Virus record (IMG/VR): IMGVR_UViG_2925939204_000001
Reading direction: 5' to 3' (one strand)
Length of the DNA: 64,000 nt
Source: a virus
Lineage: Duplodnaviria; Heunggongvirae; Uroviricota; Caudoviricetes
Under the pieces are notes generated by a model that saw only the letters and a list, made by a program, of their open reading frames with translations, had not been told where the DNA came from and ran no database searches. Positions 1,493 through 47,225 of the stretch are shown piece by piece; within the stretch, counting starts at the first letter, position 1; the number at the start of each line of letters is the position of its first letter. Both the position numbers and the translations under genes were made by a program.

Positions 1493-2146
1493 ATGGAAAA
1501 GATCGCAATATTCAGCCTGACCACCAGCAAGCCTCAAATGCTCACTGCAATACTGAAAGACGGTGCTCTCATTATTAACGAAGTAAAACCCCTTCCCGCG
1601 TCAGCATTGGAGCAAAAGCAAAAAATTCCTCCAGCCATAGCAGCCCTGCGGAAAAGCAAATTTAAGGTACTGGTAGACGAAATTACGCCAACGATCTCCG
1701 CTGGCACCGGAGCAAGCCAGGTGACTCTCAAGACCCGTCATGCCGATGGCAGAGCAGCAATCATCGTCGGGATGGAAAGATACAGAGAGTTAAAACTCCA
1801 GAAGCTATTATCCCTGCCGCAAAATAACAAAGGTGCTTTCGAAATCCCCGACTCTATCGTTGATACCGAATACAACGGTAACGGAGAAGAAGTCTACAGG
1901 GTGAACTGGCAGGATATCAGGCCGGAGCATATTCTGATGATCCTGTGTTGCTACGCGACCGTATACCACAACGTTGCCAGTGCGGATTACGTAGAGCAGA
2001 TGACCGGTACAGTCGATAAAGAGCAAAAAACAGGCATACTCGCTTCGTTCCTTTCCATTATTGGGCATGAAAAAGTTAAAGCAGGCACCTCCCAGCCAAA
2101 GTCACTGGCTGGGAAAGAAGTTGATGAAGATACCGTGATACTTTGA
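1493..2146 (+). CDS. hypothetical protein (about 217 aa)
   Basis: ATG at 1493 preceded by GGAGGAAGG; the ORF track start at 1451 is a GTG inside the terminator and is rejected. Confidence 0.55.
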   Translation: MEKIAIFSLTTSKPQMLTAILKDGALIINEVKPLPASALEQKQKIPPAIAALRKSKFKVLVDEITPTISAGTGASQVTLKTRHADGRAAIIVGMERYRELKLQKLLSLPQNNKGAFEIPDSIVDTEYNGNGEEVYRVNWQDIRPEHILMILCCYATVYHNVASADYVEQMTGTVDKEQKTGILASFLSIIGHEKVKAGTSQPKSLAGKEVDEDTVIL

Positions 2147-2474
2147 TCACATTAGTAGCTTTGTTAACTCCCTCAATACCAGGTAGAAGAGTAACAAAAA
2201 TATTGACGCGAGTATTTGAGTGGTCAATGAAGCGTTCATAAACAGATCAATTAGCATTAATAATTCGAAGATAACATCCATGTCATTCACTCCGTTTAAT
2301 TTTTAATCTAATGCCAGCAAATGAAGCTGGCCCCCGCATAAAGATTAATGAAAGTCACTTGTCACCAGTGAGGGGATTTATGAACCACATCCCCCTGAAC
2401 TGGTGGCCTGTCTGTTTCTCGCATTTCACACCCTGCATACAGTTTCCCCCAGGTTATGACTGAGAGGCTTTGTT

Positions 2475-2804
2475 ATGGGCTATAGCAGACTCGACGATAG
2501 GTACATTGAAGACGATATTTTTCGTGCGCTGTTTCACCAGGAAATGATTAAGCGGGTATCGGAGTATCACTCTGATAATTTCCAGTACACGATAAAGATT
2601 GATGAAGTATATCGTTCAGACCTTGCAGCCTACAGGGCGTATGGCAATGCAGATTTGCGCTGGGTATTCCGGGTGCTGGTGGGCCATGAGTCAGAAATGG
2701 AAGAAATGCCCGCCGGGACCACGTTAACTCTTCCTGATGTGGCATGGCTGAGGAACAAGATCCGTGATTACGCGAGCGCGGAACCGGAGATAGAAAATGC
2801 CTGA
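2475..2804 (+). CDS. hypothetical protein, translationally coupled to the next gene
   Basis: ORF track; ATGCCTGA overlap with the 2797 start. Confidence 0.5.
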   Translation: MGYSRLDDRYIEDDIFRALFHQEMIKRVSEYHSDNFQYTIKIDEVYRSDLAAYRAYGNADLRWVFRVLVGHESEMEEMPAGTTLTLPDVAWLRNKIRDYASAEPEIENA

Positions 2805-3990
2805 TTTCCTGAAAAACCAGGACGGGCGCTATATCACTGACGGCCTGTCCTCTAAGGACTTCACGCGTTTATTCGAGCTTATCAGGAAAGAACAAACCCG
2901 TAAGCGCCGACAAGCTCACCGGACGCTGACGCCAGGTAGACTGAGGAACAAATCCGCCGAAGATATTCTCAAGTTAGGGAAGAAAAAAGGCGGCACGTTC
3001 TTCACGCGAGACGACCTGAAAGGTTTCGAAAAGCTACGGAGTAAAACGCGCGAAAAATATGACAGCAAGACGGCTGGCATCACATACGCCCAGCTGGTGG
3101 CATCCAGCCAGGCAATCGATATTAAGCGTGCAAATAACGCCGTGGATGACGGATCTGGTATCAAAAGAGCTACACCCGTATCTCTTCGCCACAACGTGAT
3201 TAATATCCGCGTAGAAGCATCGGATATATCCGTCCACCAGCACCATATCGTCCGGATACGCTTTGAAGAATGGGATCAGATGGTCGATAACATCGCAGAA
3301 GACGATAAATCAGCTCTGAAAATCACTAAATCACTGTGCGCCGGGCGGGTGTCTTTCGATTGTGACTGTGGTCGTCATCAATACTGGTATCGTTACATCG
3401 CTACTGCGGGTAACTTTGCCCTGGCCCCGCCAAAAGAATACGCCTATCCAAAAGTTCGCAACCCGAAGCTGCAAGGCGTCGCCTGTAAACACGTGATCCA
3501 CTCAATGACGCGGTTACAGTCCGCCAGTTGGCAAATGAGTATTGCTCGTGCGCTACAAAAGGCTGCAACGCAAATTGCATTTGGTGACGATCGCCGCCGT
3601 ACAACCAAACACTTCTCAAAAGAAGACGAGAAGGAGTTTAATCGCAATCGTAGCAGTAAAACGAACGTTGAAGCCGCCAAACGCGAATGGAGGCTCTATC
3701 AGAAGCGCCAGGCAGCTTTAAGTACAAAACTGGCAAAGGACAACGGCAAGATCGACAAACTACGTGACCAATTGACCAAGGCCAGAAAGTTGTCAGATGC
3801 ACAGAAAAAACGGGCGGCAGCAAAAGAAGCGGCCTTGCAACGTGAGAAACAGAAAAACAAGGAGCTTCAGCAACGCCTTGCCGATCAGTTCGCACTGAAG
3901 AAGCAGGCGTTCATTGATGCGCTTGTCATGGCTGGAACACCACCAGCACAAGCTGAAAAAATGTTCATGGAGTATGTAAAAAAAGCATAA
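2797..3990 (+). CDS. SWIM-type zinc-finger protein with a highly charged coiled-coil C-terminus
   Basis: CxCx(n)CxH pattern FDCDCGRHQYW...GVACKHVIH; K/R/E-rich C-terminal 120 aa. Confidence 0.5.
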   Translation: MPDFLKNQDGRYITDGLSSKDFTRLFELIRKEQTRKRRQAHRTLTPGRLRNKSAEDILKLGKKKGGTFFTRDDLKGFEKLRSKTREKYDSKTAGITYAQLVASSQAIDIKRANNAVDDGSGIKRATPVSLRHNVINIRVEASDISVHQHHIVRIRFEEWDQMVDNIAEDDKSALKITKSLCAGRVSFDCDCGRHQYWYRYIATAGNFALAPPKEYAYPKVRNPKLQGVACKHVIHSMTRLQSASWQMSIARALQKAATQIAFGDDRRRTTKHFSKEDEKEFNRNRSSKTNVEAAKREWRLYQKRQAALSTKLAKDNGKIDKLRDQLTKARKLSDAQKKRAAAKEAALQREKQKNKELQQRLADQFALKKQAFIDALVMAGTPPAQAEKMFMEYVKKA

Positions 3991-3997
3991 ACCACAC

Positions 3998-4034
3998 ATA
4001 GCCTAGCTGCCTAGGCTAGGCTTTCATCTTTTTG
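3998..4034. terminator. hairpin AGCCTAG-ctgc-CTAGGCT followed by a T-tract, between convergent genes
   Basis: Inverted repeat at 4000-4017 then ...tttcatctttttg. Confidence 0.45.
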
Positions 4035-4752
4035 AAAAATCAATTTCCGTTTTATCAAATAAATTTGAAATATCAGCAACCAATTTATTAAAATCATGAT
4101 CGCCATTATAAAGCGAAGTCTTCTTTATTGCCATTACAAAATCATATAACTTTTCTGGGGAGTCAATACCAACCCCTCTACTTTTAAAAAGCTCAATGAT
4201 AACTCCAACATCATCATATAATAACTTTATTGCCGCCATAATCTCTTTTTGCTGCCTAAGCAATCTCTCAAGTTCATTTTTATTTTCATCCATAATTCTT
4301 TTGTTGAATTGTGTATCATTAATACTTTTTATTATTTCAGCCTCTTTTATTTGCAACGCCTTTCTTTTATTTTGATCCATGTCAGCATCCAAATACCTTA
4401 TCTCTGTGTATATTTTACTTGTTAGCTTTGATACGCAAAGAGTGACAATCGGAGCTGCAATTGATGCAATAATTCCAAAAATAAATGGCAAGAAAAAATG
4501 ATAAAACCAAGGAGACAAAACGCCTTCATAAACTAGAGGAATCTTACCTCCAACAAATGTTACAGATAAAGTATATAGGATATCATCCTTTGACTTCATC
4601 AATATTAGTATATCTTTCCAATTAATAATTAGAAAAGAAATTAATATATATGCAAACACTTTATTAAAAAGCTTGTCTTTTATGGCATCTCCAAAAGATA
4701 CTTTGATTAGATCATTTTCAGTCAATTTTTCTGTTGATGAATCTGTATTCAT
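4024..4752 (-). CDS. AT-rich membrane protein (two predicted TM helices) with cytoplasmic coiled-coil; candidate abortive-infection/exclusion effector
   Basis: Strongly AT-rich coding region versus neighbours; hydrophobic segments VFAYILISFLIINW and WFYHFFLPFIFGIIASIAAPIVTLCV; K/E-rich heptad C-terminus. Confidence 0.5.
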   Translation of the reverse strand: MNTDSSTEKLTENDLIKVSFGDAIKDKLFNKVFAYILISFLIINWKDILILMKSKDDILYTLSVTFVGGKIPLVYEGVLSPWFYHFFLPFIFGIIASIAAPIVTLCVSKLTSKIYTEIRYLDADMDQNKRKALQIKEAEIIKSINDTQFNKRIMDENKNELERLLRQQKEIMAAIKLLYDDVGVIIELFKSRGVGIDSPEKLYDFVMAIKKTSLYNGDHDFNKLVADISNLFDKTEIDFSKR

Positions 4753-4814
4753 ATAAACTACCGTGATTTCTAATATCTATTTTATGAAAATAGCTGTCAT
4801 CCAGACCGCCAAAC

Positions 4815-5174
4815 TCAAATACCAACCAAGCTTTCAAGAGGAATGCCAAACTGGGAATGTAAACGGCGAATCATAGGTAACGTCAAATTTCGTGTCCCAT
4901 TTAGCACTTCGTAAACACGATTTGACTTACCAATCGCCGGCTCCAGATCCTTCACGGTCAGCCCTTGCTGTTCCATACGGAATTTAATGGCCTCAATAGG
5001 TGATGGTGGCTCAATTGGGTAATGTTTTTTCTCGTACTCCTCAATGAGAAGACTCATAACCTCAAAGAAATCACCTTCCGGAGTATTCATTTCCGGTTCG
5101 TTATCGAACATCGGTTCGACCGCACGCAGTGCGGCCTCATAATCTTGTTCTGTACGGATAGGTTTAATGTTCAT
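4815..5174 (-). CDS. HigA-like HTH regulator/antitoxin (N-terminal domain plus C-terminal HTH, YgjM/COG5499 architecture), no cognate toxin adjacent
   Basis: C-terminal segment GLTVKDLEPAIGKSNRVYEVLNGTRNLTLPMIRRLHSQFGIPLESL matches the HigA C-terminal HTH pattern. Confidence 0.55.
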   Translation of the reverse strand: MNIKPIRTEQDYEAALRAVEPMFDNEPEMNTPEGDFFEVMSLLIEEYEKKHYPIEPPSPIEAIKFRMEQQGLTVKDLEPAIGKSNRVYEVLNGTRNLTLPMIRRLHSQFGIPLESLVGI

Positions 5175-5186
5175 TAATTACAAAGG

Positions 5187-5220
5187 AAAGCCCACTTGCT
5201 AAGTGGGCTTTTTGTATGTG
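5187..5220. terminator. palindromic hairpin AAAGCCCACTT-gcta-AGTGGGCTTT separating higBA from the downstream HTH gene
   Basis: Perfect 10-bp inverted repeat flanked by U-rich sequence on both strands. Confidence 0.5.
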
Positions 5221-5230
5221 TTTTACTATA

Positions 5231-5569
5231 TCAGGCTGCTTTTTTATTCAGGTTCCGCTGAGAAATAAATTTTTCAGCAGTATTGATACGACTTAACTCT
5301 TCCTGGACGCGCATATCATTTTCGACTTCCCACAGATCTACTGCGGTCTGAAGATTAATCCAAAAATCTACAGAAGTATCGAATGCTTTTGCCAGGCGAT
5401 ATGCCATATCCATCGTTAGCTTACGATTGTTATTAACAAGAGCGCTTACGGTGTTACGATGAACATGAAGTATTTCTGCTAACTCGTTGATCTTCAGCTC
5501 TAACGGCTCCAGGTATTCGTACAGCAGGATATCACCTACGGTCGTCGGTTTTCTGGTTGCCTGTTTCAT
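5231..5569 (-). CDS. higA: HigA-family antitoxin (XRE HTH, COG3093-type)
   Basis: HTH region LAEILHVHRNTVSALVNNNRKLTMDMAYRLAKAFDTSVDFWINLQ; directly downstream of the HigB-like toxin. Confidence 0.75.
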   Translation of the reverse strand: MKQATRKPTTVGDILLYEYLEPLELKINELAEILHVHRNTVSALVNNNRKLTMDMAYRLAKAFDTSVDFWINLQTAVDLWEVENDMRVQEELSRINTAEKFISQRNLNKKAA

Positions 5570-5639
5570 TTTTTGCCCTTACTAGCGTGCGTATTAAGTG
5601 GACTCTGGTCAGAACCCGGTCCGTAACCGGGTATCTGTT

Positions 5640-5942
5640 TTAGTATTTGTGAGGGTCGAGATACAAGTCCTCGGCCTTTCCGTTAACCCACTTAAAAATT
5701 AACCTATATTGCTTATTCACCCTTACTGATGAATAGCCATTTAGCTTCCCTGACAGTTCCTCATACCGATTACCTGGTGGTGATCTTAAATCCTTACAGG
5801 TAGTTGCGGCATTGATAATGTCCAACTTCCGTGACAATGTCATATGAATATCAGGAGGTATCTTTCTATGTGGTGTTGAAAATTCAAAAAAATCATCAAG
5901 CCACGCATCCCTGAAATCCTTTATGTTAATTTTTTTGGTCAT
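5640..5942 (-). CDS. higB: HigB toxin (RelE/ParE fold, plasmid maintenance killer family)
   Basis: C-terminal pattern NRYEELSGKLNGYSSVRVNKQYRLIFKWVNGKAEDLYLDPHKY typical of HigB; toxin-upstream-of-antitoxin order. Confidence 0.8.
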   Translation of the reverse strand: MTKKINIKDFRDAWLDDFFEFSTPHRKIPPDIHMTLSRKLDIINAATTCKDLRSPPGNRYEELSGKLNGYSSVRVNKQYRLIFKWVNGKAEDLYLDPHKY

Positions 5943-10259: not shown

Positions 10260-12399
10260 CCTTCGATATGGTTCAGTTTGCAGTGGAATTGAAGCCGCGA
10301 GCATTGCCTGGGAACCGTTGGGTATGCGTCCGGCGTGGTTTGCTGAAATTGAGCCTTTTCCATCTGCCGTTCTTGCGCACCGCTGGCCTCATATCGCCAA
10401 CCTTGGCGATATGACAAAACTTGCCAAAAAAGTCCTGGCTGGGGAAATCGAATCCCCTGATGTGCTCGTCGGGGGAACACCTTGTCAGGCATTCAGTATC
10501 GCGGGATTACGTGGTGGGCTTGATGATGAGCGCGGCGCGCTAACTTTGAAGTATGTGGAGCTTGCAAATGCAATTGACGACAAACGGTCTGAGTCCTTCC
10601 TCAAACCGACAGTTATCGTCTGGGAAAATGTCCCAGGAGTCCTGTCATCGGCAGATAACGCCTTCGGATGTTTCCTTGCCGGATTGGCTGGAGAAGATGC
10701 ACCATTTGAACCAGGTGATCGACCTGAATCAGGAAAAAGTAACGCGTTCTGGCGGTGGGATGGCAAAACCGGTTGCCATGCTCCAAAGTGGCCGCAGTGT
10801 GGTTGTATTTATGGACCGCAGCGAAAGGTGGCCTGGAGAATACTTGATGCCCAATACTTCGGAGTGGCACAACGACGCCGACGCGTGTTTGTTGTCGCAA
10901 GTGCTCGAACAGACCTCGATCCCGCAACGGTACTTTTTGAGTTCGAAGGCGTGCGCCGGGATATTGCGCCGAGCAGAGGCGAGGGGAAGGAAGTTGCCGG
11001 AAATGTTGGAAATGGCATTAAAAGCGGGAGCCATTGGGATAACCCTGTAAATCCTCACCCGACACTTGCCCGATCGCACAATACCGGCGGGACGGGTGCA
11101 AGCAACCAGGAGATTTTTTCACAGCGCGGAAGTGGGCTTGTCGGTGCTTACCGGATGGTAGCATTTGGTGAGTATGCGGATGATGAGGCGGCTTCCACGG
11201 TCAAGGCCAGAGATTTTAAGGATGCAACCGACCTGGCTGTTTTTGACAGTGCGAACGTCGGAGTGGCAGTACGTCGCTTAACGCCTGTCGAGTGCGAACG
11301 CCTGCAGGGCTTTCCTGACGGGCACACGTTGATCCCTACGGAAAAGCGTAAAAAAGTTTCTTCAGATGAACTGGCATACCTTCGCAATCACTATCCAGAT
11401 TTAAGCGAAGAAGAGGCCGCGATGCTTGCAGCTGACGGACCGCGTTACAAAGCGATCGGCAACAGCATGGCAGTTCCTGTTATGCAATGGATAGGGTGTC
11501 GCATTCTTGCGACCGTAGCGGATAAACAGCAAAAAACAATAAATACCATTACCTACACAAGAAAACTCCGGACTCCGGATGAATATGAACGCCCAATATT
11601 CAAATGGGTAGGCGGTAAATTCTCAGAGTTGCCTACAGTGCTTGAGCATCTACCACACGGCAAGCGGTTAATAGAACCATTCGTTGGTGGCGGTTCCGTA
11701 TTTACGAATGCAGGATTTCGCCACAACCTGCTTAATGATATTAACGGTGACCTGATTAACTTCTATCAGACATTGCAGCGAGAGGGACATTCGCTCGTCA
11801 CGCTGGCATATAGTTTTTTCAAAAATTACAACAACGCTGACGCTTACCTCGAAGTGCGCGAGGCATTTAACAGAGGAAAGTATGACCAGCTACATCATGC
11901 TGCCGCCTTTTTGTACCTTAATCGGCACTGTTTTAATGGCGTAACGCGGTACAACCAAAATGGCGAGTTCAACGTGGGGTATGGCAAATACAAAGCGCCC
12001 TACTTCCCACATGCAGAGATGGAGGCATTTTTGGCTGATGACGTACTCAAAAACACGTCCTTTGTATCAGGTGACTTTGCTGGCGTCATCGAGGCGGCTG
12101 GTGAAGGCGATGTGATTTTTTGCGATCCGCCGTATGAACCGCTGCCGGATACAGAAGGGTTTACCAGTTATTCAGGAAATAGCTTCCGTTTCGACGAACA
12201 GAAACGGCTGGTATCTCTATTGGTGGAAGCCCACCAGCGCGGCGCTAAGGTAGTGATAACAAATAGTGGTGCGCCAAACATCCGTGAACTATATGAACGA
12301 AACGGGTTTAAAGTACATCATATGGCAGCCAGACGGTCGGTGTCCTGCAAGGCGTCAACACGTGTAGTTGCTAACGATATAATTGCAATAATGAAGTAA
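10243..12399 (+). CDS. bifunctional DNA methyltransferase: N-terminal C5-cytosine MTase fused to C-terminal Dam-type N6-adenine MTase (P1 Dmt-like)
   Basis: C5 motifs [30 protein letters not shown]; Dam motifs KWVGGK and DPPY; GTG at 10243 after GGAGG is the likely start (ORF opens at 10171). Confidence 0.85.
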
Positions 12400-12447: not shown

Positions 12448-14109
12448 TTAACCTAACTTCGCCCAGGTATCACGCAGCCCAACGGTGCGGTTAAATACCG
12501 GTTTTTCCGCCGTAGAATGGCGGCTGTCGAGGCAGAAATAACCTTCACGCTCAAACTGGAATGCTTTACCCGCTACCGCTTCTTTCAGCGACGGTTCAGC
12601 AAAACCCTGTTTGATCACCAGCGATTCCGGGTTAATCACCGACAGGAAATCATCCGCAGCACCTGGGTTCGGCACGCTGAACAGACGATCGTACAGGCGG
12701 ATTTCAACCGGCAGCGCATGTGCCGCGCTCACCCAGTGAATAACGCCTTTCACTTTACGACCATCTGCCGGATCTTTGCTTAAGGTGTCGGCGTCATAAG
12801 TACAGAAGATGGTGGTGATATTGCCTTCGGCATCTTTCTCCACGCGTTCAGCCTTAATGACGTAAGCATTACGCAGACGCACTTCTTTACCCAGCACCAG
12901 ACGTTTGTACTGCTTGTTAGCTTCTTCGCGGAAATCGGCGCGGTCGATCCAAATCTCACCGCTAAACGGCACCTGACGGCTACCCATTTCCGGTTTGTTT
13001 GGATGGTTCGGCATGGTGACCATTTCGCCTTCGCCCTGGTAGTTTTCGATAACCAGTTTCACCGGATCGATAACCGCCATTGCGCGCGGCGCATTTTCGT
13101 TGAGATCTTCACGGATGCAGGATTCCAGCGACGCCATCTCAATGGTGTTGTCCTGCTTGGTCACGCCGATGCGTTTGCAGAACTCACGAATAGAAGCCGC
13201 AGTGTAACCACGACGACGCAGACCGGAAATGGTCGGCATACGCGGGTCATCCCAGCCTTCAACGTGCTTGTCGGTCACCAGCAGGTTCAGCTTACGCTTG
13301 GACATCACAGTGTATTCCAGATTCAGGCGCGAAAATTCGTACTGGCGCGGGTGAACAGGAATGGTGATGTTGTCCAGTACCCAGTCATACAGACGACGGT
13401 TGTCCTGGAACTCAAGCGTACACAGAGAGTGCGTAATACCTTCCAGCGCATCGCTGATGCAGTGGGTGAAGTCGTACATCGGGTAGATGCACCACTTGTT
13501 GCCAGTCTGGTGATGTTCAGCAAACTTAATGCGGTACAGCACCGGGTCGCGCATCACGATAAACGGCGAAGCCATGTCGATTTTCGCACGCAGGCAGGCT
13601 TTACCTTCTTCAAAACCACCGGCACGCATTTTTTCGAACAGCGCCAGGTTCTCTTCAACGCTGCGGTCGCGGTACGGGCTGTTTTTACCCGGCTGCGTCA
13701 GGGTGCCGCGGTATTCGCGGATCTGTTCCGGCGTCAGTTCGTCAACATACGCCAGGCCTTTGTTGATCAGTTCAACAGCATAGGCATGGAGTTTGTCAAA
13801 ATAATCGGAGGAGTAACGGATGTTGCCAGACCAGTGAAAACCTAACCATTCAACGTCGTTTTTAATCGACTCGACGTACTCGATATCTTCTTTTACCGGG
13901 TTAGTGTCGTCGAAACGCAGGTTGCACTGGCCTTTATAGTCCTGGGCGATCCCGAAGTTCAGGCAGATAGATTTCGCATGACCAATATGCAGATAGCCAT
14001 TCGGTTCCGGCGGGAAACGGGTATGTACTGTGGTGTGCTTACCACTGGCCAGATCTTCATCGATGATCTGACGAATAAAGTTAGTCGGGCGGGCTTCTGC
14101 CTCACTCAT
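12448..14109 (-). CDS. glnS: glutaminyl-tRNA synthetase
   Basis: Full-length 553-aa product nearly identical to enterobacterial GlnRS as recalled; HIGH motif ([12 protein letters not shown]) and KMSKS-like VMSKR. Confidence 0.95.
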
Positions 14110-36645: not shown

Positions 36646-37491
36646 ATGAAAGAGAATTGGTTTAAGGAGCGGTTAACTAAAGCAAAACAGGATTCTAAGC
36701 TCTGGAGCGCCTTTATAGGCGCTTTACATGAAGTCTGGGATGAAGCTGTAGAACCAATATTAACAAGAATAAGTAACAGAAAATCCTTCTTCACTATGGA
36801 CAGTGAGGATATGGATGCCCGCATTGCTGAATACGGGCGTTTTTTCGTTATCACTGAAAAAGATAAGGCCCGTAGGCCAATGCTTCTGGCACAACGTTTA
36901 GATGAAGTGCACTTTAAAGGCACTATCCTGCCTATTGAGCAGACATTCTGGCGTGAATTCGGTTGTATTCCTGTAAGTTGGGAACCGCTGTATGCTCCTG
37001 TAAATATAGAAAAACACCCCTATGGTTCATATTTTGCGACCGAAATAGAGATACCAACTGCACAGTCTCAATTCGGTGAGTTCTTCCTGACATCAAGGGG
37101 GCTGGTCGTTGTTGATCAGAACAAGCTATATCGCTCATATGGAGAGCAGGATCGAGAAGCTGCTGTGCAGAAATTGTTATCTGACTTCGAAACAGTAATA
37201 GCCCCATTGTTGCCATTGCATATTATTTTTGATGGCGTCTCGTTTCGGCTTAGTGCAGTATTCCCTGAAGTGGCAGAAATACTAAATTGCTTGTCTACGG
37301 ATATTTCGGTAATTGAAGGTGTTTATGTTACTGAGAGTATGGCTGATATGCTATCCCATAGTGATACCTCCTGCCAGGCAGACAATATTTCTCTTAACGC
37401 CATACCGAACCGAACGGCAGAAAAGCAATTACATCTTGATGTAACCCCACTCGATGCGTGGCCTTTGGATTACCACCTTCAACCTGTTTAA
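36646..37491 (+). CDS. baseplate/tail protein candidate
   Basis: ORF track. Confidence 0.35.
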   Translation: MKENWFKERLTKAKQDSKLWSAFIGALHEVWDEAVEPILTRISNRKSFFTMDSEDMDARIAEYGRFFVITEKDKARRPMLLAQRLDEVHFKGTILPIEQTFWREFGCIPVSWEPLYAPVNIEKHPYGSYFATEIEIPTAQSQFGEFFLTSRGLVVVDQNKLYRSYGEQDREAAVQKLLSDFETVIAPLLPLHIIFDGVSFRLSAVFPEVAEILNCLSTDISVIEGVYVTESMADMLSHSDTSCQADNISLNAIPNRTAEKQLHLDVTPLDAWPLDYHLQPV

Positions 37492-37582
37492 TAATTCTTC
37501 CCCCGCATTTGGGGGAACAACGGAAATCACAAACTGAGCATACTCTCCTTTGGTTCATTGCTTATGAAGGGGCTATGTTCGT

Positions 37583-38029
37583 ATGGCTGAAAATTTAAAG
37601 GCAAGAGATGGTAACCGCCTGTATAAGGCGCAATTGCTTTCCTACTATTATTCACGCCGCGCTGAGTCGGCGATCGGCAAAGGTGCGCGTTTTGTTATCT
37701 CTAAGGCGTATTGGTGCAAATCTAGTCTGGTAACTGCTAATGGTGCAGGAGGCTGGAATATAGCGGACATTCCACTCGATTTTAAATTGAGTAAAGCTCA
37801 ACAGTTTGCTGTGTCCGATCTGATATTGTCCAGTGTGGATGGGATTATCACTATCAATGCAGCCTTCCCTCAAGAAAGAATGCCGGATAACACGCCTTAC
37901 GACTTTAACACGCTTGTGCTTGTTGATGCTGAGGAACAGGCTTTTGCTGTGCTTTGCACCCAGCAAGACACCCTCTATAAAGGTAAACGTTACAGTATTC
38001 TCATGACAATCGAGCAAGTTGAGGGTTGA
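37583..38029 (+). CDS. hypothetical tail protein
   Basis: ORF track; stop overlaps the tail-fibre start. Confidence 0.35.
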   Translation: MAENLKARDGNRLYKAQLLSYYYSRRAESAIGKGARFVISKAYWCKSSLVTANGAGGWNIADIPLDFKLSKAQQFAVSDLILSSVDGIITINAAFPQERMPDNTPYDFNTLVLVDAEEQAFAVLCTQQDTLYKGKRYSILMTIEQVEG

Positions 38030-41016
38030 TTATGAATGCTGATAAAACGAACAACATAATGACACTATCCTCTGGTGTCTCACAGCCGTTGCTTGCTGAT
38101 GTTCAATATTTCGAACTCTATAGTAGTCTGGCTCTTAACAGAAAACTAAAAAATATTGTTTTGCCTGGCTTTTACTGTGGATTTGAACCGGTTCCCGGCA
38201 CAGGGTTGAGTGTCCGTATAACTTCTGAAAACTCAGAAGGTAAAGGGGCTGCTTCAGTAGATGTAAATAATGTTCAGATATCCGTTCAGCAAATAGAAGA
38301 TGTGACTGTCTCGGTAAAGGCAGGGGCTACCAACATTATTGTGCTGGAAGCCAATTTTGAACATGGTGTAAAAACGACACAGGTAGATAGCGCATCTTTT
38401 GTCAGTGCTGCAAGAATTTACGCGCGTACGGACAATACTATTGGGCAGAATCAAATTGAATTATGTCGAGTTATCGTGCCTAGCGGCGCAACGGCTGTGA
38501 CTAAAGAAATGATTGTGCTTAAATACCGGGTTAACCGTGCTGTTGGTGTCGAATTCTCTAATGAAATAAGCAGTACAGAAGAAAGAAAAGCGGCTACACC
38601 TCTGGCTGTCAAAACTCTCCATGATTTGGTTGATACAAAAGCCCCGATCAACAGCCCGAATCTGACAGGAACGCCAACAACACCAACAGCGACACAGGGG
38701 ACTAATAATACCCAGATCGCAAGCACGGCTTTCGTTATGGCCGCGATTGCCGCACTTGTAGATTCGTCACCTGATGCACTTAACACTCTGAACGAACTGG
38801 CCGCCGCGCTTGGTAATGATCCGAACTTTTCCGCGACAGTGACTCGCCTGATTGGGGAAAAAGTTGCCAAAGATGGCGACACCATGGAAGGTAAACTTAA
38901 TCTGCCGCAGACCTCTGCATTCGGCATCAATACCGACAACAGACTGGGGGGGAACTCTCTGACGCTGGGCGATCACGATACCGGAATTAAACAGGAAGGA
39001 GACGGCGTATTGTCCGTGTTCGCCAACGGCCAGCGTGTGTTCCTTTTCACGGAAAGAAGTATTACCTCATTAAAAGAGCTTCTGATAGGTGATGCACGTT
39101 ATAGCACCGGTGGTGATGTGTATGGCAGTCAGTGGGGAGACGGTTGGTTGAGTTCCTGGTTAAGTGCCCGCTTTGCAGAGTGTGCCAACGCCAGCCATAA
39201 CCACCCTTGGAGCCAGATTACCGACGTACCAGCAGCCAGCCTCACTCAGAGCGGCATTGTACAACTTAGTAGTGCCACCAACAGCACTTCTGAAACATTA
39301 GCTGCAACGCCAAAAGCGGTTAAAGCTGCATACGATCTAGCAGCCGGAAAGGCACCATCCAGTCATACACATCCCTGGAATCAGATCACCGGTGTGCCAA
39401 CAGCTTCATTGACAGCGAAAGGCATCACTCAGCTCAGTAGTGCCACTAACAGCACGTCCGAAGTGCTGGCCGCCACACCGAAAGCTGTCAAGGCCGCATA
39501 TGACCTGGCTAACGGGAAGTATACGGCCCAGGATGCAACCACGACACAAAAAGGGATAGTTCAGCTCAGTAGCGACACCAACAGCACTTCTGAAACATTA
39601 GCTGCAACGCCAAAAGCGGTTAAAGCTGCATACGATCTAGCAGCCGGAAAGGCACCATCCAGTCATACACATCCCTGGAATCAGATCACCGGTGTGCCAA
39701 CAGCTTCATTGACAGCGAAAGGCATCACTCAGCTCAGTAGTGCCACTAACAGCACGTCCGAAGTGCTGGCCGCCACACCGAAAGCTGTCAAGGCCGCATA
39801 TGACCTGGCTAACGGGAAGTATACGGCCCAGGATGCAACCACGACACAAAAAGGGATAGTTCAGCTCAGTAGCGACACCAACAGCACTTCTGAAACATTA
39901 GCTGCAACGCCAAAAGCGGTTAAAGCTGCATACGATCTAGCAGCCGGAAAGGCACCATCCAGTCATACACATCCCTGGAATCAGATCACTAGTGTGCCAA
40001 CAGCTTCATTGACAGCGAAAGGCATCACTCAGCTCAGTAGCGACACCAACAGCACGTCCGAAGTGCTGGCCGCCACACCGAAAGCTGTCAAGGCCGCATA
40101 TGACCTGGCTAACGGGAAGTATACGGCCCAGGATGCAACCACGACACAAAAAGGGATAGTTCAGCTCAGTAGCGACACCAACAGCACTTCTGAAACATTA
40201 GCTGCAACGCCAAAAGCGGTTAAAGCTGCATACGATCTAGCAGCCGGAAAGGCACCATCCAGTCATACACATCCCTGGAATCAGATCACTAGTGTGCCAA
40301 CAGCTTCATTGACAGCGAAAGGCATCACTCAGCTCAGTAGCGACACCAACAGCACGTCCGAAGTGCTGGCCGCCACACCGAAAGCTGTCAAGGCTGCATA
40401 TGATTTGGCTAATGGAAAGCAAGCGGCAGACACTACGCTCACTGCTCTAGCGGCACTAGCTACAGCAGCAGATAAACTCCCTTATTTCACAGGGGTTGAT
40501 CGTGCCGCGTTAACTGCATTGACAAGTGTTGGACGCGCCATTCTTGGTAAGACCAGTATTCAGAGCGTTCTTGATTACCTTCAATTGGGAGAAGCGGCAA
40601 AAAGGGGCGTGGGCACCGGTAGCAATCAACTCCCTGACATGTCCGCATTTGGTATGTCGCGAAACGGACAAACTGCCTGGGATATTCTCCCAAATGGTAT
40701 GATTCGACAGGCTGGCACTGTGACACTGACACCAGTTGGTAACTTCAACGCGCAGGTGCTTGGTGGGGTGACGTACTACACCCATTACTACAGGATTAAT
40801 TTCCCCAGACAATTCCCAAATGCACAAATAGCAACGCTGGCTACACTAGCGAGTTACGCCTATTCGAACCAGGCAACAATGGCTGGAAAATCACTGGCAA
40901 CGCATCGCGATACTGATTCTGGCACTGACGTATCAAGAACGCGATTCACTGTGGCGTATACGACACCCAATCTCGGCGAAATACCGACAGTGCATTTTGA
41001 ATCAATAGGGTACTAA
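38026..41016 (+). CDS. tail fibre protein with tandem tail-fibre repeats
   Basis: 996 aa; repeated ATPKAVKAAYDLA and HTHPW motifs typical of enterobacterial phage tail-fibre repeats. Confidence 0.8.
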   Translation: MIMNADKTNNIMTLSSGVSQPLLADVQYFELYSSLALNRKLKNIVLPGFYCGFEPVPGTGLSVRITSENSEGKGAASVDVNNVQISVQQIEDVTVSVKAGATNIIVLEANFEHGVKTTQVDSASFVSAARIYARTDNTIGQNQIELCRVIVPSGATAVTKEMIVLKYRVNRAVGVEFSNEISSTEERKAATPLAVKTLHDLVDTKAPINSPNLTGTPTTPTATQGTNNTQIASTAFVMAAIAALVDSSPDALNTLNELAAALGNDPNFSATVTRLIGEKVAKDGDTMEGKLNLPQTSAFGINTDNRLGGNSLTLGDHDTGIKQEGDGVLSVFANGQRVFLFTERSITSLKELLIGDARYSTGGDVYGSQWGDGWLSSWLSARFAECANASHNHPWSQITDVPAASLTQSGIVQLSSATNSTSETLAATPKAVKAAYDLAAGKAPSSHTHPWNQITGVPTASLTAKGITQLSSATNSTSEVLAATPKAVKAAYDLANGKYTAQDATTTQKGIVQLSSDTNSTSETLAATPKAVKAAYDLAAGKAPSSHTHPWNQITGVPTASLTAKGITQLSSATNSTSEVLAATPKAVKAAYDLANGKYTAQDATTTQKGIVQLSSDTNSTSETLAATPKAVKAAYDLAAGKAPSSHTHPWNQITSVPTASLTAKGITQLSSDTNSTSEVLAATPKAVKAAYDLANGKYTAQDATTTQKGIVQLSSDTNSTSETLAATPKAVKAAYDLAAGKAPSSHTHPWNQITSVPTASLTAKGITQLSSDTNSTSEVLAATPKAVKAAYDLANGKQAADTTLTALAALATAADKLPYFTGVDRAALTALTSVGRAILGKTSIQSVLDYLQLGEAAKRGVGTGSNQLPDMSAFGMSRNGQTAWDILPNGMIRQAGTVTLTPVGNFNAQVLGGVTYYTHYYRINFPRQFPNAQIATLATLASYAYSNQATMAGKSLATHRDTDSGTDVSRTRFTVAYTTPNLGEIPTVHFESIGY
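39250..40430 (+). repeat. about four near-identical tandem 300-bp repeats within the tail-fibre gene
   Basis: Identical 60-nt lines recur at 39541, 39841 and 40141. Confidence 0.9.
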
Positions 41017-41018
41017 AT

Positions 41019-41252
41019 ATGGAGAATATCTATTTCAGCCCAACGACCGTTGGTTTTTATGTTTCTGAACAAGAGCGACCTGATGATGCGGTTGAAGTCT
41101 CGCCAGAGGTGGAGGCATTTTTGAGGGAGTGTGTTATCTGGGGAGCGGATACATTTAACGTAGAGCGAGATGCAGCAACGGTGACATATCCAACAGAACT
41201 GCTTGAATATGTCACCACCTACAACGCCCCCGTTAAATATCCTGCGGATTGA
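41019..41252 (+). CDS. short ORF with tail-fibre-assembly-like N-terminus ([14 protein letters not shown]...PDDAVEV) lacking the conserved Tfa C-terminal domain
   Basis: N-terminal motif resembles Tfa chaperones; ends 77 aa in, overlapping the convergent Tfa pseudogene. Confidence 0.4.
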
Positions 41253-41643
41253 CAGGCCATACGGGTTTTGCTGTATCAACGCGCATCAGCAAGACCCGGT
41301 ATTTTTTCCATTCAGATAACGCGGCGGTTTCTTCTGCCGTCGCGATTTCCGCATCAAAAGCATCCTGTCTCTAGGCTATTTCCTTATCAGCCATAGAACG
41401 CAATACCGTTCTTTTCTGTTCAGCCTGAATAATCTGTTGTTCAGCGGAGAGTGGCGGGATATCAATCCACGCAGGATTACCATTTTTATCAGCCCCCAGC
41501 GTTTTGCCTTGTGGCGCTACGCCTGTGTAAATTGCCATTGTTTCATCATCAACATCAACGCCATTTTCAGGCCATGAACCGGCGCTGATATATACCTCTT
41601 TTAGTGCTTTCGGATAGAAAGAGCCTTTATAAAATTTATTCAT
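41233..41643 (-). pseudogene. tail fibre assembly (Tfa) gene interrupted by an in-frame TAG (41371-41373)
   Basis: N-terminal 90 codons then TAG then 45 codons in the same frame ending with the conserved Tfa C-terminus [36 protein letters not shown]. Confidence 0.55.
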
Positions 41644-41835
41644 TCTTAATACCCCAGCGCGATAAAACAACAATCTTTGGTGCCCTCTCCGGATGGCGAC
41701 CAGTTCTGAATACTGATATGCGTTCTGCTGGCAATACGCACATTCATCGCGGCATTGTAGCCAGATGTTCCACGGTTTCCGGTCGCAAATAAGCCTGCAT
41801 AGGGAAAAGCAAATGGTAAGCCGCTCTAACTGCTA

Positions 41836-42012
41836 TACGACCAAGGCTTCATCTCTGGAAAACATACGCAGAACCTTTTTTAACCCTTGGCGTTTAGCCT
41901 TTTTGCCACTCGCTTTGCCCTCAAAAATTAGCTCACATCCTGCGCTTTCAAGGGGGCGTTGCAAAGCGGTGTTTTGGTCATTTGTTGATATGCGAATGTA
42001 TCTAATAAGCAT
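41836..42012 (-). pseudogene. N-terminal fragment of a Cin/Gin/Hin-type serine DNA invertase, stopped by TAG where Trp is expected and degenerate thereafter
   Basis: MLIRYIRISTNDQNTALQRPLESAGCELIFEGKASGKKAKRQGLKKVLRMFSRDEALVV* aligns with invertase N-termini including the catalytic Ser; next codons QLERL match the expected W-KLDRL. Confidence 0.6.
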
Positions 42013-42117
42013 ATGTCTCCCCTTGTATGTTAAGGAAGGAGATTTTAGAAGATGTCCTGTAAGGAAATAACAAACTGACTAAGGTAGTGGCGCATTAGAT
42101 GTTATTTCTGGAGGGGT

Positions 42118-42444
42118 ATGTTTGCAGATTATGAAAATCTGGCTGTAGTAGTCATAACATCCCTACTAAGTGGAACCGGCGTATTCCTTCTCGGAGTTAG
42201 AGACGGGCGCATTTCTGCGTCCCTGCTCAATCTTGCGAGTGAATTGTTTACTGCGGTAACAGCCGGGCTTGCGGGGTATGGGGTGGCGGTTAGCCAAGAA
42301 TGGCCTGAAGGTATCATTTTCTGCGTTGTTCTGATTGCCAGTAACAACGGTAGTGAAATTTTACAGGGCTTGAAGTCCAGAGCTAGTAACGTCTTGAATC
42401 TCTTAAGCGTAATAGCGAATGGGGGAAAAGGTGGAGAGAAATAA
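42118..42444 (+). CDS. holin-like small membrane protein (three predicted TM segments)
   Basis: 108 aa with three hydrophobic stretches and charged C-terminus. Confidence 0.4.
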   Translation: MFADYENLAVVVITSLLSGTGVFLLGVRDGRISASLLNLASELFTAVTAGLAGYGVAVSQEWPEGIIFCVVLIASNNGSEILQGLKSRASNVLNLLSVIANGGKGGEK

Positions 42445-42890
42445 TGGGTAACTTTGGAAATTATTTCATTTTTATCATGGCATTTGTTGCCATCATTGAC
42501 CGTTTCATTTTTCGTCGCAAGAGTGTTGAGATTTTGAGTATTGGTGACGCTGTAGTGAAAGAATCCGCTATAGCATTTCCTGTTTCGCTACGTGTTAAGC
42601 GAAGCTGGTTCAGCAATGCTCAAATCGAATATTGGTTGCAAGACCTGAAAAATCCATCTGTGGTTATTTCAGGGAAAACGCGACCAGTTGACGCTTCAAA
42701 ACGCGGTGAGAGAGAAGAGTATTTGCTCATCGATACGAAATATCTTGAGCCAACGAAGTGGGATCTGAAAGTCACATTGACTAACGGTAACTGCCGACTG
42801 AATCCGCTTTATCGCATTTTCCCTATCAATGACTGCATAGAGCGCCAGTTTACGATCGAAAAGCGTGAAGGAGACTGGGATGTCAAATAA
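42444..42890 (+). CDS. membrane-anchored protein (antiholin/lysis-associated candidate)
   Basis: N-terminal TM FIFIMAFVAIIDRFIF; coupled start (TAATG). Confidence 0.3.
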   Translation: MGNFGNYFIFIMAFVAIIDRFIFRRKSVEILSIGDAVVKESAIAFPVSLRVKRSWFSNAQIEYWLQDLKNPSVVISGKTRPVDASKRGEREEYLLIDTKYLEPTKWDLKVTLTNGNCRLNPLYRIFPINDCIERQFTIEKREGDWDVK

Positions 42891-43500
42891 GAATAATTAT
42901 GTTCTTCTTAATTATGATGAGTTAAACGAAAAGGGGCTGGCAAAACTCGTCAAAGAAATCAGCAAAGGTGGTTACAAGATAGCGAGGGTGATCCCTGCAA
43001 GTAATGGCAGGAAGAAAGATGGGATCATGACGCGCACGTTTACCCTTATTGGTATTGATGAACAGACAATGGAAGTTCAGGTTAACGATACCGGTGATAT
43101 ATCTGGGATCAAACTGAATGGTAAAACAGTACCGTTCAAGCCAGTAAAAACAATGTCGTCTTTGGGGCAATCTCTTGCGGCTTTATTTAATCGTGGAGCA
43201 ACTTCTTTCCAGAAGTCATTAGCTCGAAAACTTGCTCGTGCAGCAAAAAATATTGACGACGGAAATAAGAAGCGGCAGGGAGTTAAATCTAGCGCTCAGA
43301 AATTAGCTGAAGCGAAAGAATCACGTGATGCACTCCGTGAAGATATCGCTAATGCTAACGACAAACTGTCTAAACTCCAGAGCAAGTCAGACAAAGTAAT
43401 GCAAGATACGGGTAATGTTAAAGCTGCCTTGTCTCAGGAAGTAGCTAAGACACGTGCTCTTAAAGAAGAAATCGCGCGCCTGGAGGATGAGCATGATTAA
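42880..43500 (+). CDS. coiled-coil protein, candidate Hdf-like component of a Dar-type anti-restriction operon
   Basis: ATG at 42880 after GGAG; size and order relative to the following large gene. Confidence 0.3.
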   Translation: MSNKNNYVLLNYDELNEKGLAKLVKEISKGGYKIARVIPASNGRKKDGIMTRTFTLIGIDEQTMEVQVNDTGDISGIKLNGKTVPFKPVKTMSSLGQSLAALFNRGATSFQKSLARKLARAAKNIDDGNKKRQGVKSSAQKLAEAKESRDALREDIANANDKLSKLQSKSDKVMQDTGNVKAALSQEVAKTRALKEEIARLEDEHD

Positions 43501-45834: not shown

Positions 45835-47225
45835 ATCCAGTGCGCCATAAAACCCCGTCCTTCAGGGCGGGGATATAAGGCGCGGTTTTCCACCTAAATT
45901 TTTTTGTTTAAAATAGCGGGATGAAACGACTACAGGCATTTAAATTCCGGTTAAGACCAGATGGTCAACAGGAGCGAGAAATGAGGCGCTTCGCGGGAGC
46001 TTGTCGTTTCGTTTTCAATCGTGCTCTGGCGCTTCAGAATGAGAATCATGAAGCCGGGAACAAATATATTCCTTACACAAAAATGGCTTCCTGGCTGATT
46101 GAGTGGAAAAATGCCTCTGAAACGCAATGGCTTAAAGATTCTCCCTCACAGCCATTGCAGCAATCACTGAAAGACCTTGAGCGGGCCTACAAAAATTTCT
46201 TCCAGAAGCGTGCGGCTTTCCCCCGATTCAAAAAGCGGGGACAGAATGATGCATTCCGCTACCCGCAGGGCGTTAAGCTCGATCAGGAAAACAGCCGTAT
46301 TTTTCTGCCGAAACTGGGCTGGATGCGCTACCGGAACAGCCGTCAGGTCACGGGTGTTGTGAAAAATGTCACTGTCAGCCAGTCCTGCGGTAAGTGGTAC
46401 ATCAGTATTCAGACAGAAAGTGAAGTATCAACTCCGGTTCACCCTTCAGCATCAATGGTCGGGCTGGATGCTGGCGTGGCTAAACTCGCCACGCTGTCAG
46501 ATGGCACAGTCTTTGAGCCTGTAAACAGTTTTCAGAAAAACCAGAAGAAGCTGGCGAGACTTCAGCGACAGTTAAGCCGCAAGGTCAAATTCAGCAACAA
46601 CTGGCAGAAGCAGAAACGCAAAATACAGCGACTGCATTCCTGTATCGCAAATATCCGCAGGGACTACCTTCACAAAGTCACAACGACCGTCAGCAAAAAC
46701 CACGCAATGATAGTCATTGAGGATTTGAAGGTCAGCAACATGTCAAAGTCAGCAGCGGGTACGGTCAGCCAGCCGGGGCGCAATGTCCGGGCAAAATCAG
46801 GTTTAAACCGTTCGATACTGGATCAGGGCTGGTATGAAATGCGCCGCCAGCTTGAGTACAAGCAGCTCTGGCGTGGCGGTCAGGTGCTTGCTGTTCCGCC
46901 AGCGTACACAAGCCAGCGTTGCGCGTACTGTGGTCATACAGCGAAAGAAAATCGCCTGTCACAAAGTAAATTCGAGTGCCGGGCATGTGGATATACAGCG
47001 AACGCCGATATAAACGGCGCTCGTAACATTTTAGCGGCGGGACACGCCGTTCTTGCCTGTGGAGGGATGGTGCAGTCAGGCCGCCCGTTGAAGCAGGAAC
47101 CCACCGAAATGATTCAGGCAACAGCCTGAGCGTAGCAGGAATCCATGTTCTTGAGGGCGTGGAGGATGTCAACTGTTCTCACATAAATCACACACTTTTT
47201 ACACTTCCAGCTTTCTCTATAGGGG
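45835..47225 (+). mobile_element. IS200/IS605-family element carrying only tnpB, with subterminal hairpins; boundaries approximate
   Basis: TnpB ORF flanked by imperfect hairpins (AACCCCGTCC-ttca-GGGCGGGG at 45851-45874) and no TnpA gene. Confidence 0.55.
45921..47129 (+). CDS. tnpB: TnpB (OrfB) RNA-guided endonuclease, apparently intact
   Basis: RuvC-like residues in GLDAGV, IVIEDLK and [10 protein letters not shown]; C-terminal zinc finger CAYCGH...CRACG. Confidence 0.85.

Follow-up and report, generated by a model that had tools for sequence, protein, structure and literature searches.

A probable remnant of a Din-family tail-fibre inversion switch, locked on one tip, in a D6-type phage-plasmid

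Can the tail-fibre region of this phage-plasmid still alternate between two fibre tips, or has it been fixed on one of them, and by what series of events? A Din-family switch comprises an invertase of about 185-190 amino acids, with a catalytic N-terminal domain and a DNA-binding C-terminal domain, two inverted 26-bp sites with identical central dinucleotides, and a Fis-dependent enhancer located in the 5' end of the invertase gene. The locus studied here lies in a stretch of 64,000 nucleotides (the window, in what follows), of which positions 36900-43000 are 100% identical to the plasmid unitig_3 of E. coli AR_0118 (NZ_CP020051.1); at least positions 40900-42150 also match a plasmid record of strain AR_0128 at 100%. 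The backbone is of the phage D6 type, a P1-family phage-plasmid, and homology to D6 covers 36881-38722 and resumes from 41818. An earlier note, made from the sequence alone, had read the region as the fossil of a host-range switch of the P1 C-segment or Mu G-segment type that is now locked. The present analysis supports that reading, as intact relatives carry the same cassettes together with two 26-bp sites and a full-length invertase, and positions 40568-42012 very probably represent the remnant of a Din-family (Cin/Gin/Pin-type) inversion switch locked on one tip. The locus is a pseudogenised member of a well-known kind that has undergone ordinary gene decay, and it had been flagged already by automated annotation: RefSeq/PGAP labels both the tfa gene (41233-41643, minus strand) and the invertase stub as pseudogenes.

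By annotation, the remaining phage-plasmid is largely intact, and other pseudogenes are few. One of them is a DNA adenine methylase gene without its N-terminus (11581-12399; 98.3% identity to NZ_CP020051.1), which adjoins a plasmid-borne glutaminyl-tRNA synthetase gene, glnS (12448-14109; 99.6% identity to NZ_CP020051.1). The presence of glnS on D6-like plasmids has already been reported (PMC6799933). Another feature of the window is a 1.3-kb insertion relative to D6, found between ddrA-like and ddrB-like genes (45835-47172), which contains a lone gene for a TnpB/InsQ RNA-guided endonuclease from an IS200/IS605-type element (45921-47129).

The expressed fibre tip and its 77-aa partner

The tail-fibre gene, a homologue of gene S of P1 and D6, is intact (38026-41016, plus strand; PGAP places the start at 38032) and encodes a protein of 996 aa. 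It is a mosaic, with a D6-like N-terminus extending to about 38722, Phage_fiber_2 repeats in the middle and, from 40577, a tip like those of chromosomal prophages. The protein matches the Pfam family Phage_fiber_2 with E=6.6e-159, and a weak match to Gp53-like_C is found at residues 888-978. The Phage_fiber_2 repeats, which appear as nine stretches in the protein, are encoded by a 300-bp tandem repeat within the gene (39268-40419; 3.8 copies, 98% identity). The fibre genes of the sibling plasmids described below range from 996 to more than 1200 aa, and this difference in length suggests that the copy number of the 300-bp repeat varies.

At the boundary between the constant and the variable parts of the fibre lies an orphan 26-bp crossover site, TTCTTGATTACC-TT-CAATTGGGAGAA (40568-40593; central dinucleotide at 40580-40581). 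It aligns with the annotated cix sites of D6 and with the left sites of three intact relatives, namely L005 (a chromosomal prophage of strain CRE1493 with pinE), L006 (in the chromosome of AR_0118), and L009 (a P1-like plasmid). The homology of one fibre type stops at 40596 and that of the prophage modules begins at 40577, that is, at the crossover site. Beyond it, the variable tip Sv (40581-41016, plus strand) is fixed in the expressed orientation, in frame with the constant part, and shares about 98% identity with its counterparts in L005 and L006.

The earlier note had called for a search for cix-like sites, and this was run as a half-site scan of all 64 kb, with the chance expectation taken from shuffles. 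The scan returned one 26-bp site in the fibre gene, its partner being gone: six sites reached a score of at least 15 against 2.3 expected, with the known site (40568-40593) among the six, and no second crossover site was found in the window. Besides the known site, only a weak site-like 26-mer at 4544-4569, TTACCTCCAACA AA TGTTACAGATAA, has a compatible central dinucleotide. This 26-mer lies 36 kb off, agrees at 16 of 20 specified positions (about 0.25 such sites being expected by chance), and is probably fortuitous. Since an intact site joins the fibre gene to the Sv/77-aa cassette, the corresponding fibre is the sole one that the phage can make; from the sequence, a single fibre type is predicted, encoded by the 996-aa fibre gene in permanent fusion with Sv, downstream of which lies the 77-aa gene.

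The partner of Sv, an intact gene at 41019-41252 (plus strand), encodes a protein of 77 aa (WP_001340317.1) that is 100% identical in intact switches. Its exact sequence is found on at least 1000 contigs, and homologues in Citrobacter, Enterobacter, and Phytobacter, down to 59% identity, are 77-84 aa in length and have invariant residues along the full length. It had been proposed that this ORF has a Tfa-like N-terminus but no conserved C-terminus. The first part agrees with a match to PHROG 188 ("tail fiber assembly protein", E=9e-5), which is limited to residues 1-31. The second part did not stand, as the protein belongs to an intact family conserved over its whole length. The candidate explanation of a degraded Tfa is ruled out by the constancy of the length (77-84 aa) and by the conservation up to the C-terminus. 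The connection to Tfa proteins is weak, as the protein has no match in Pfam and its comparison with the neighbouring Tfa by hhalign was not significant. A compact alpha/beta fold is predicted by AlphaFold (AF2) with a mean pLDDT of 91.5; Foldseek searches of PDB and BFVD with this fold gave nothing at E<=0.001, and the top match, a weak one at E=0.15, was a 60-aa "tail fiber assembly protein" of Pantoea phage LIMEzero. To judge from its position, the 77-aa protein presumably serves the Sv tip as a small assembly chaperone.

A 14-nt inverted repeat (GGTGACATATCCAA / TTGAATATGTCACC, with a 9-nt loop) is located inside the 3' end of the 77-aa gene (41180-41216), just ahead of the 20-nt overlap between the convergent 77-aa and tfa genes. 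It is conserved in L005 and L006 and could be a bidirectional terminator or a regulatory hairpin. A promoter and terminator scan of positions 40900-42200 gave nothing informative.

The silent cassette, the invertase scar, and the junction between them

The tfa pseudogene (Caudo_TAP; 41233-41643, minus strand) corresponds to the chaperone that belongs to the silent cassette. A single internal stop interrupts its 136-codon frame, in agreement with the PGAP remark "internal stop", and the sole lesion is the change of Trp91 from TGG to TAG at 41371-41373. The earlier note had described the gene as split by a single in-frame TAG at this position, and this is borne out by the letters, by the translation, and by the comparison with L005, the Tfa being identical to the intact Tfa of that chromosomal prophage apart from W91*. 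When the Trp is restored, the protein matches Pfam Caudo_TAP (PF02413) with E=2.4e-31 over profile positions 5-131 of 131; with its frame broken at codon 91, it is a pseudogene member of this family. Both 41371-41373 and 41833-41835, the latter being the position of the invertase lesion, are CTA on the plus strand and hence TAG on the minus strand. No suppressor tRNA for these ambers was found: the tRNA anticodons of the plasmid are CAT, TGA, TGT, and GTT, and the window carries no tRNA.

The alternative tip itself survives only as a remnant, Sv' (41646-41820, minus strand), which comprises the last 57 codons and the stop of a protein that has 168 aa when intact, and which has lost the 5' part, the start codon, and the crossover site. 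A tblastn comparison of residues 112-168 of the L005 Sv' with the remnant gave 98% identity; the intact 168-aa protein of L005 has a Gp53-like_C domain. The homology to L005, L006, L003 (phage vB_EcoM-813R1), and L002 stops at 41820. Over positions 40901-41820 only three nucleotides differ from L005, and two of them fall in the dead cassette, namely the amber base of tfa (41372) and a change that replaces E by K in the Sv' remnant. The pair of facing tip cassettes with chaperones is therefore incomplete: Sv and the 77-aa gene are intact, Sv' retains 57 of 168 codons, and tfa carries W91*.

Next to this remnant lies the cin scar (41818-42012, minus strand), in which a serine invertase of the P1/D6 type is preserved for codons 1-66 (D6 numbering); it retains Ser9 and has TAG in place of Trp61 (41833-41835). 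The 59-codon ORF that precedes the stop (41836-42012, minus strand) matches Pfam Resolvase with E=3.9e-8 at profile positions 2-69 of 145, and PGAP describes the stub as "recombinase family protein" and "incomplete, missing C-terminus". The Resolvase match and Ser9 confirm the earlier identification of the ORF as the first 59 codons of a Cin/Gin/Hin-type invertase including the catalytic Ser. The TAG had likewise been placed correctly at the expected Trp codon, as D6 and P1 Cin have Trp61 (TGG changed to TAG). Compared with D6 Cin, the stub has accumulated about 14 changes or losses (13 substitutions, the nonsense change included, and one deleted codon): G4R, V8I, a 3-nt deletion in a C-run, D33G, E41K, P43Q, I51M, L52F, G55D, D56E, T57A, W61*, K62Q, and D64E. 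Conserved residues are replaced by six of them (G4R, P43Q, G55D, D56E, K62Q, and D64E). The scar is 85% identical to P1, and it still contains a stretch homologous to the recombinational enhancer that P1 has at nt 19-90 of cin (here at about 41926-41994, minus strand); the 3-nt deletion shortens this putative enhancer. A full-length serine recombinase is absent, codons 1-66 with an internal TAG being all that is left of the gene. Searches of the window by tblastn with D6 Cin and with a pin-type protein found no other serine recombinase, the stub being the sole match, and the annotation of the rest of the matching plasmid lists no serine invertase but only a tyrosine recombinase. Left with a single site and without an invertase, the switch is predicted to be unable to turn.

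The sequence past the invertase TAG, previously taken to be degenerate, is in fact made up of five more cin codons (QLERL, against KLDRL in D6), followed by a junction at AAG (41818-41820) into the last 57 codons of Sv', in another frame. At this illegitimate junction with AAG microhomology, the homology to D6 stops and that to the prophage/P1-like segment starts. An invertase-mediated deletion at a quasi-site was considered and is ruled out, since neither side of the junction is located at a crossover site and only three nucleotides (AAG) are shared.

Intact relatives, locked siblings, and the order of events

Inversion of this kind of segment has been observed in the relatives. In L005, L006, L009, and L010, the last of which is also a P1-like plasmid, the order is the constant part of the fibre, a site, Sv, and the 77-aa gene, then tfa and Sv' on the opposite strand, a second site, and a full-length invertase. 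L009 and L010 encode the same recombinase (WP_046598022.1) and carry the segment in opposite orientations: in L009 the invertase-side half-site TTTTCTTAGACG meets the Sv' side at the central TT, and in L010 it meets the Sv side there. Both orientations have thus been found in intact relatives only. Another copy of the same switch, L006, is present in the chromosome of AR_0118 (NZ_CP020048.1, 383250-385742), adjoining yciI/tonB, with both sites, a full Sv', an intact Tfa, and an invertase of 182 aa. It is 98.2% identical to the block of the window and is a possible donor or gene-conversion partner. More complex arrangements are found in L013 (pEc-050-T0_3; 1547-5763) and in L003: besides two Tfa genes and a pin-type invertase, these multi-cassette segments carry two additional fibre-tip ORFs. 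The annotation of 813R1 divides the invertase into Hin1 and Hin2. These multi-cassette relatives and the split invertase suggest that cassette shuffling and invertase decay are common across P1/D6-like elements.

Plasmids that share the locked state were sought in PLSDB with a chimeric query, in which the 77-aa gene and tfa were joined to D6-type lysis genes and which matched 152 records. About 150 of the records match the D6-type lysis region, and both parts of the query are found together in only six. All six plasmids with the Sv/77-aa cassette lack an invertase, and the 77-aa cassette is ON in every one of them. They fall into four junction types. The type of the window (AR_0118 and AR_0128) keeps Sv' residues 112-168 and 66 cin codons, and pEc1079_2 keeps Sv' residues 56-168 and 39 cin codons. 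In the W444 plasmid unnamed3 and in pCUVET16-559.2, Sv' residues 38-168 are followed by about 190 nt of filler, including spacer from downstream of pin, and 17 cin codons are left. Finally, in plasmid II of RL465 nothing remains of Sv', the deletion reaching into tfa, and there are 45 codons of a different cin allele. The siblings pEc1079_2, W444, pCUVET16-559.2, and RL465 have the same backbone as the window, with the same cassette fixed ON, no invertase, and a cin scar by lydA. The tfa amber is present only in the window type, whereas the three complete sibling tfa genes read Trp91, as does that of RL465, which has lost about its first 22 codons.

Because the four junction types are not nested, the deletions that gave rise to them are independent. 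The same cassette is ON in all four, a coincidence with a chance of about 1/8, which is not significant. Neutral decay that followed a single earlier inactivation explains the siblings most simply, and repeated selection, although it may have occurred, is not required. That locking on this tip has been repeatedly selected or, as a second possibility, that the 77-aa protein stands for a minimal class of fibre-tip chaperones not yet described is considered improbable.

The proposed history would begin with a serine invertase that flipped a segment of about 1.5 kb between two 26-bp sites, so that the constant part of the ancestral fibre was joined either to Sv and its 77-aa partner or to Sv' and Tfa. 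The cin stub would have been the first to die, through the change of Trp61 to amber and further lesions, at the time when the D6 segment, along with the 3' part of cin, gave way to a prophage-type segment that brought its own invertase. Next, at AAG (41818-41820), either a deletion or an illegitimate recombination would have removed the second site and the first 111 codons of Sv'; the same event probably also took a pin-type gene, the spacer, and codons 67-102 of the scar. The tfa gene, by then useless, would finally have gained its amber at Trp91. According to this order of events, the last working invertase was probably not the cin stub but a pin-type gene that is now wholly deleted.

The order proposed for these steps draws on the scars of the relatives. 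In L013, the cin scar is nearly the same allele, lacking only G4R and E41K and sharing the TAG, K62Q, and D64E; it lacks 2 nt in the same C-run, reaches as far as codon 102, and has as its neighbour an intact pin-type recombinase that faces away from the segment. L009 shows this pairing of pin and scar as well, and W444 keeps about 60 nt of the spacer from downstream of pin. The occurrence of the same TAG allele beside an intact pin-type gene in L013 implies that the stub was already dead in the common ancestor. The stub would also be much older than the deletion, given its approximately 14 changes against two nucleotides in the tfa/Sv' remnant, and the event that created the junction appears to be recent, as only three nucleotides separate 40901-41820 from L005. 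No D6-like plasmid with this cassette pair and an intact invertase was found, all six such PLSDB plasmids being locked; for this reason, the proposal of a pin-type ancestor draws on a relative with different cassettes.

A simpler history, implied by the earlier note, is that the cin stub was the own invertase of the switch, killed in place by the Trp61 amber and truncated later, so that a pin-type gene was never present. The cin genes of D6 and P1 have the same position and orientation, with a crossover site at the 3' end, and the stub has 77% protein identity to D6 Cin, as this history would predict. However, the same decayed TAG allele is found in pEc-050-T0_3 by an intact pin-type recombinase that serves the switch there, W444 retains the pin-downstream spacer, and the stub has about 14 changes against only two nucleotides in the tfa/Sv' remnant; a switch that relied on its own cin until the end is therefore considered rather unlikely. 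Somewhat more weight, although still that of a minority view, is given to the junction as an acquisition scar, in which Sv, the 77-aa gene, tfa, and a partial Sv' would have come from a prophage by crossovers at the site and at AAG, so that segment and invertase would have been exchanged at one stroke. Over 40900-41820 the block shares 99.7% identity with prophages of E. coli chromosomes, with three nucleotides separating it from L005, and over 40576-41820 only 97.3% with the sibling plasmids; because it is closer to a chromosomal prophage than to its siblings, the junction could date from the acquisition of the module. In addition, the AR_0118 chromosome contains an intact copy, and the homology has its left limit at the crossover site. 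The same pattern of identity would nevertheless be left by a later gene conversion between plasmid and prophage, and the siblings, which also have truncated Sv' remnants and cin scars with other endpoints, fit the progressive decay of a shared ancestor. The AAG event may thus have been a simple deletion or part of the import of a block from a chromosomal prophage.

Two further readings would leave the switch functional, and both are given very little credit. One would have it still work through an invertase supplied in trans and a cryptic second site, and indeed the chromosome of AR_0118 has an intact invertase by a 98% identical segment and the window has the weak 26-mer at 4544-4569. This 26-mer, however, is too distant (36 kb) and too close to the chance expectation (0.25) to make such a reading anything but extremely improbable, and the flipping would yield no second fibre, as the first 111 codons of Sv' are gone and a stop interrupts the frame of its chaperone. 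With one site on the plasmid and a truncated Sv', a chromosomal invertase acting in trans cannot restore switching. The other attributes both TAGs to base-calling errors in a switch that is intact. It could be argued from the nature of the lesions, both single G-to-A changes in Trp codons, and from the matching records, which are long-read assemblies. Nonetheless, the locus is 100% identical in two assemblies, and the exact 90-aa Tfa fragment has been found on six contigs and the exact 59-aa Cin fragment on five (NCBI and Logan), while other 59-aa members of the 90%-identity cluster of the Cin fragment occur on more than 100 contigs, Salmonella included. The recurrence of the truncated products in independent assemblies shows that the stops are real, which settles the question of sequencing errors raised in the earlier note. 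Moreover, the invertase is cut by a junction to unrelated sequence, a lesion beyond a mere base change, and an artefact can practically be dismissed. The preferred reading is still that of a decayed switch whose last invertase was probably of the pin type.

Significance and comparison with known switches

Beyond what the annotation already records, the significance of the locus is small. Just two of its features are new, and only to a modest degree: the siblings that were truncated independently of one another, and the conserved protein of 77 aa that partners Sv. A phage-plasmid with one fibre type is relevant when host range is predicted. The locus also shows how inversion modules are swapped at crossover sites among P1-like plasmids, D6-like plasmids, and chromosomal prophages, and then decay. 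In a paper on D6-like plasmids, the inversion region has been identified as their most divergent part, and locked variants are not described there. The sibling plasmids with their differing endpoints offer a modest lead on the turnover of fibre switches, and the 77-aa protein one on fibre assembly.

Among the closest known systems are the Pin-type segments of E. coli chromosomal prophages (L005 and L006) and of the P1-like plasmids pEC73552_03 and H8 plasmid A. They share the left site with the window, and their Sv, 77-aa, tfa, and Sv' cassettes are 97-99.7% identical to its own. Four features that the window does not have set these loci apart: the complete pair of sites, an Sv' of the full 168 aa, an intact Tfa, and a full-length invertase whose transcription leads away from the segment. 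With regard to the P1 C-segment with Cin and to the corresponding region of D6 (S, U, U', S', cixL, cixR, and cin), the locus occupies the same position, between the fibre gene and the lydA holin gene. The cin stub has the P1/D6 orientation and 77% protein identity to D6 Cin, the architecture of the sites is alike, and the putative enhancer region is located within the 5' end of cin. On the other hand, the window keeps only 66 cin codons with a stop, and one site instead of two. Its cassettes are not those of the Sv-U type of P1 and D6 but short tips with a gp53-like C-terminal domain, one of them paired with the 77-aa protein and not with a Caudo_TAP Tfa. The locus once worked like the switches of the P1 C-segment, the Mu G-segment, and the e14 P-segment.
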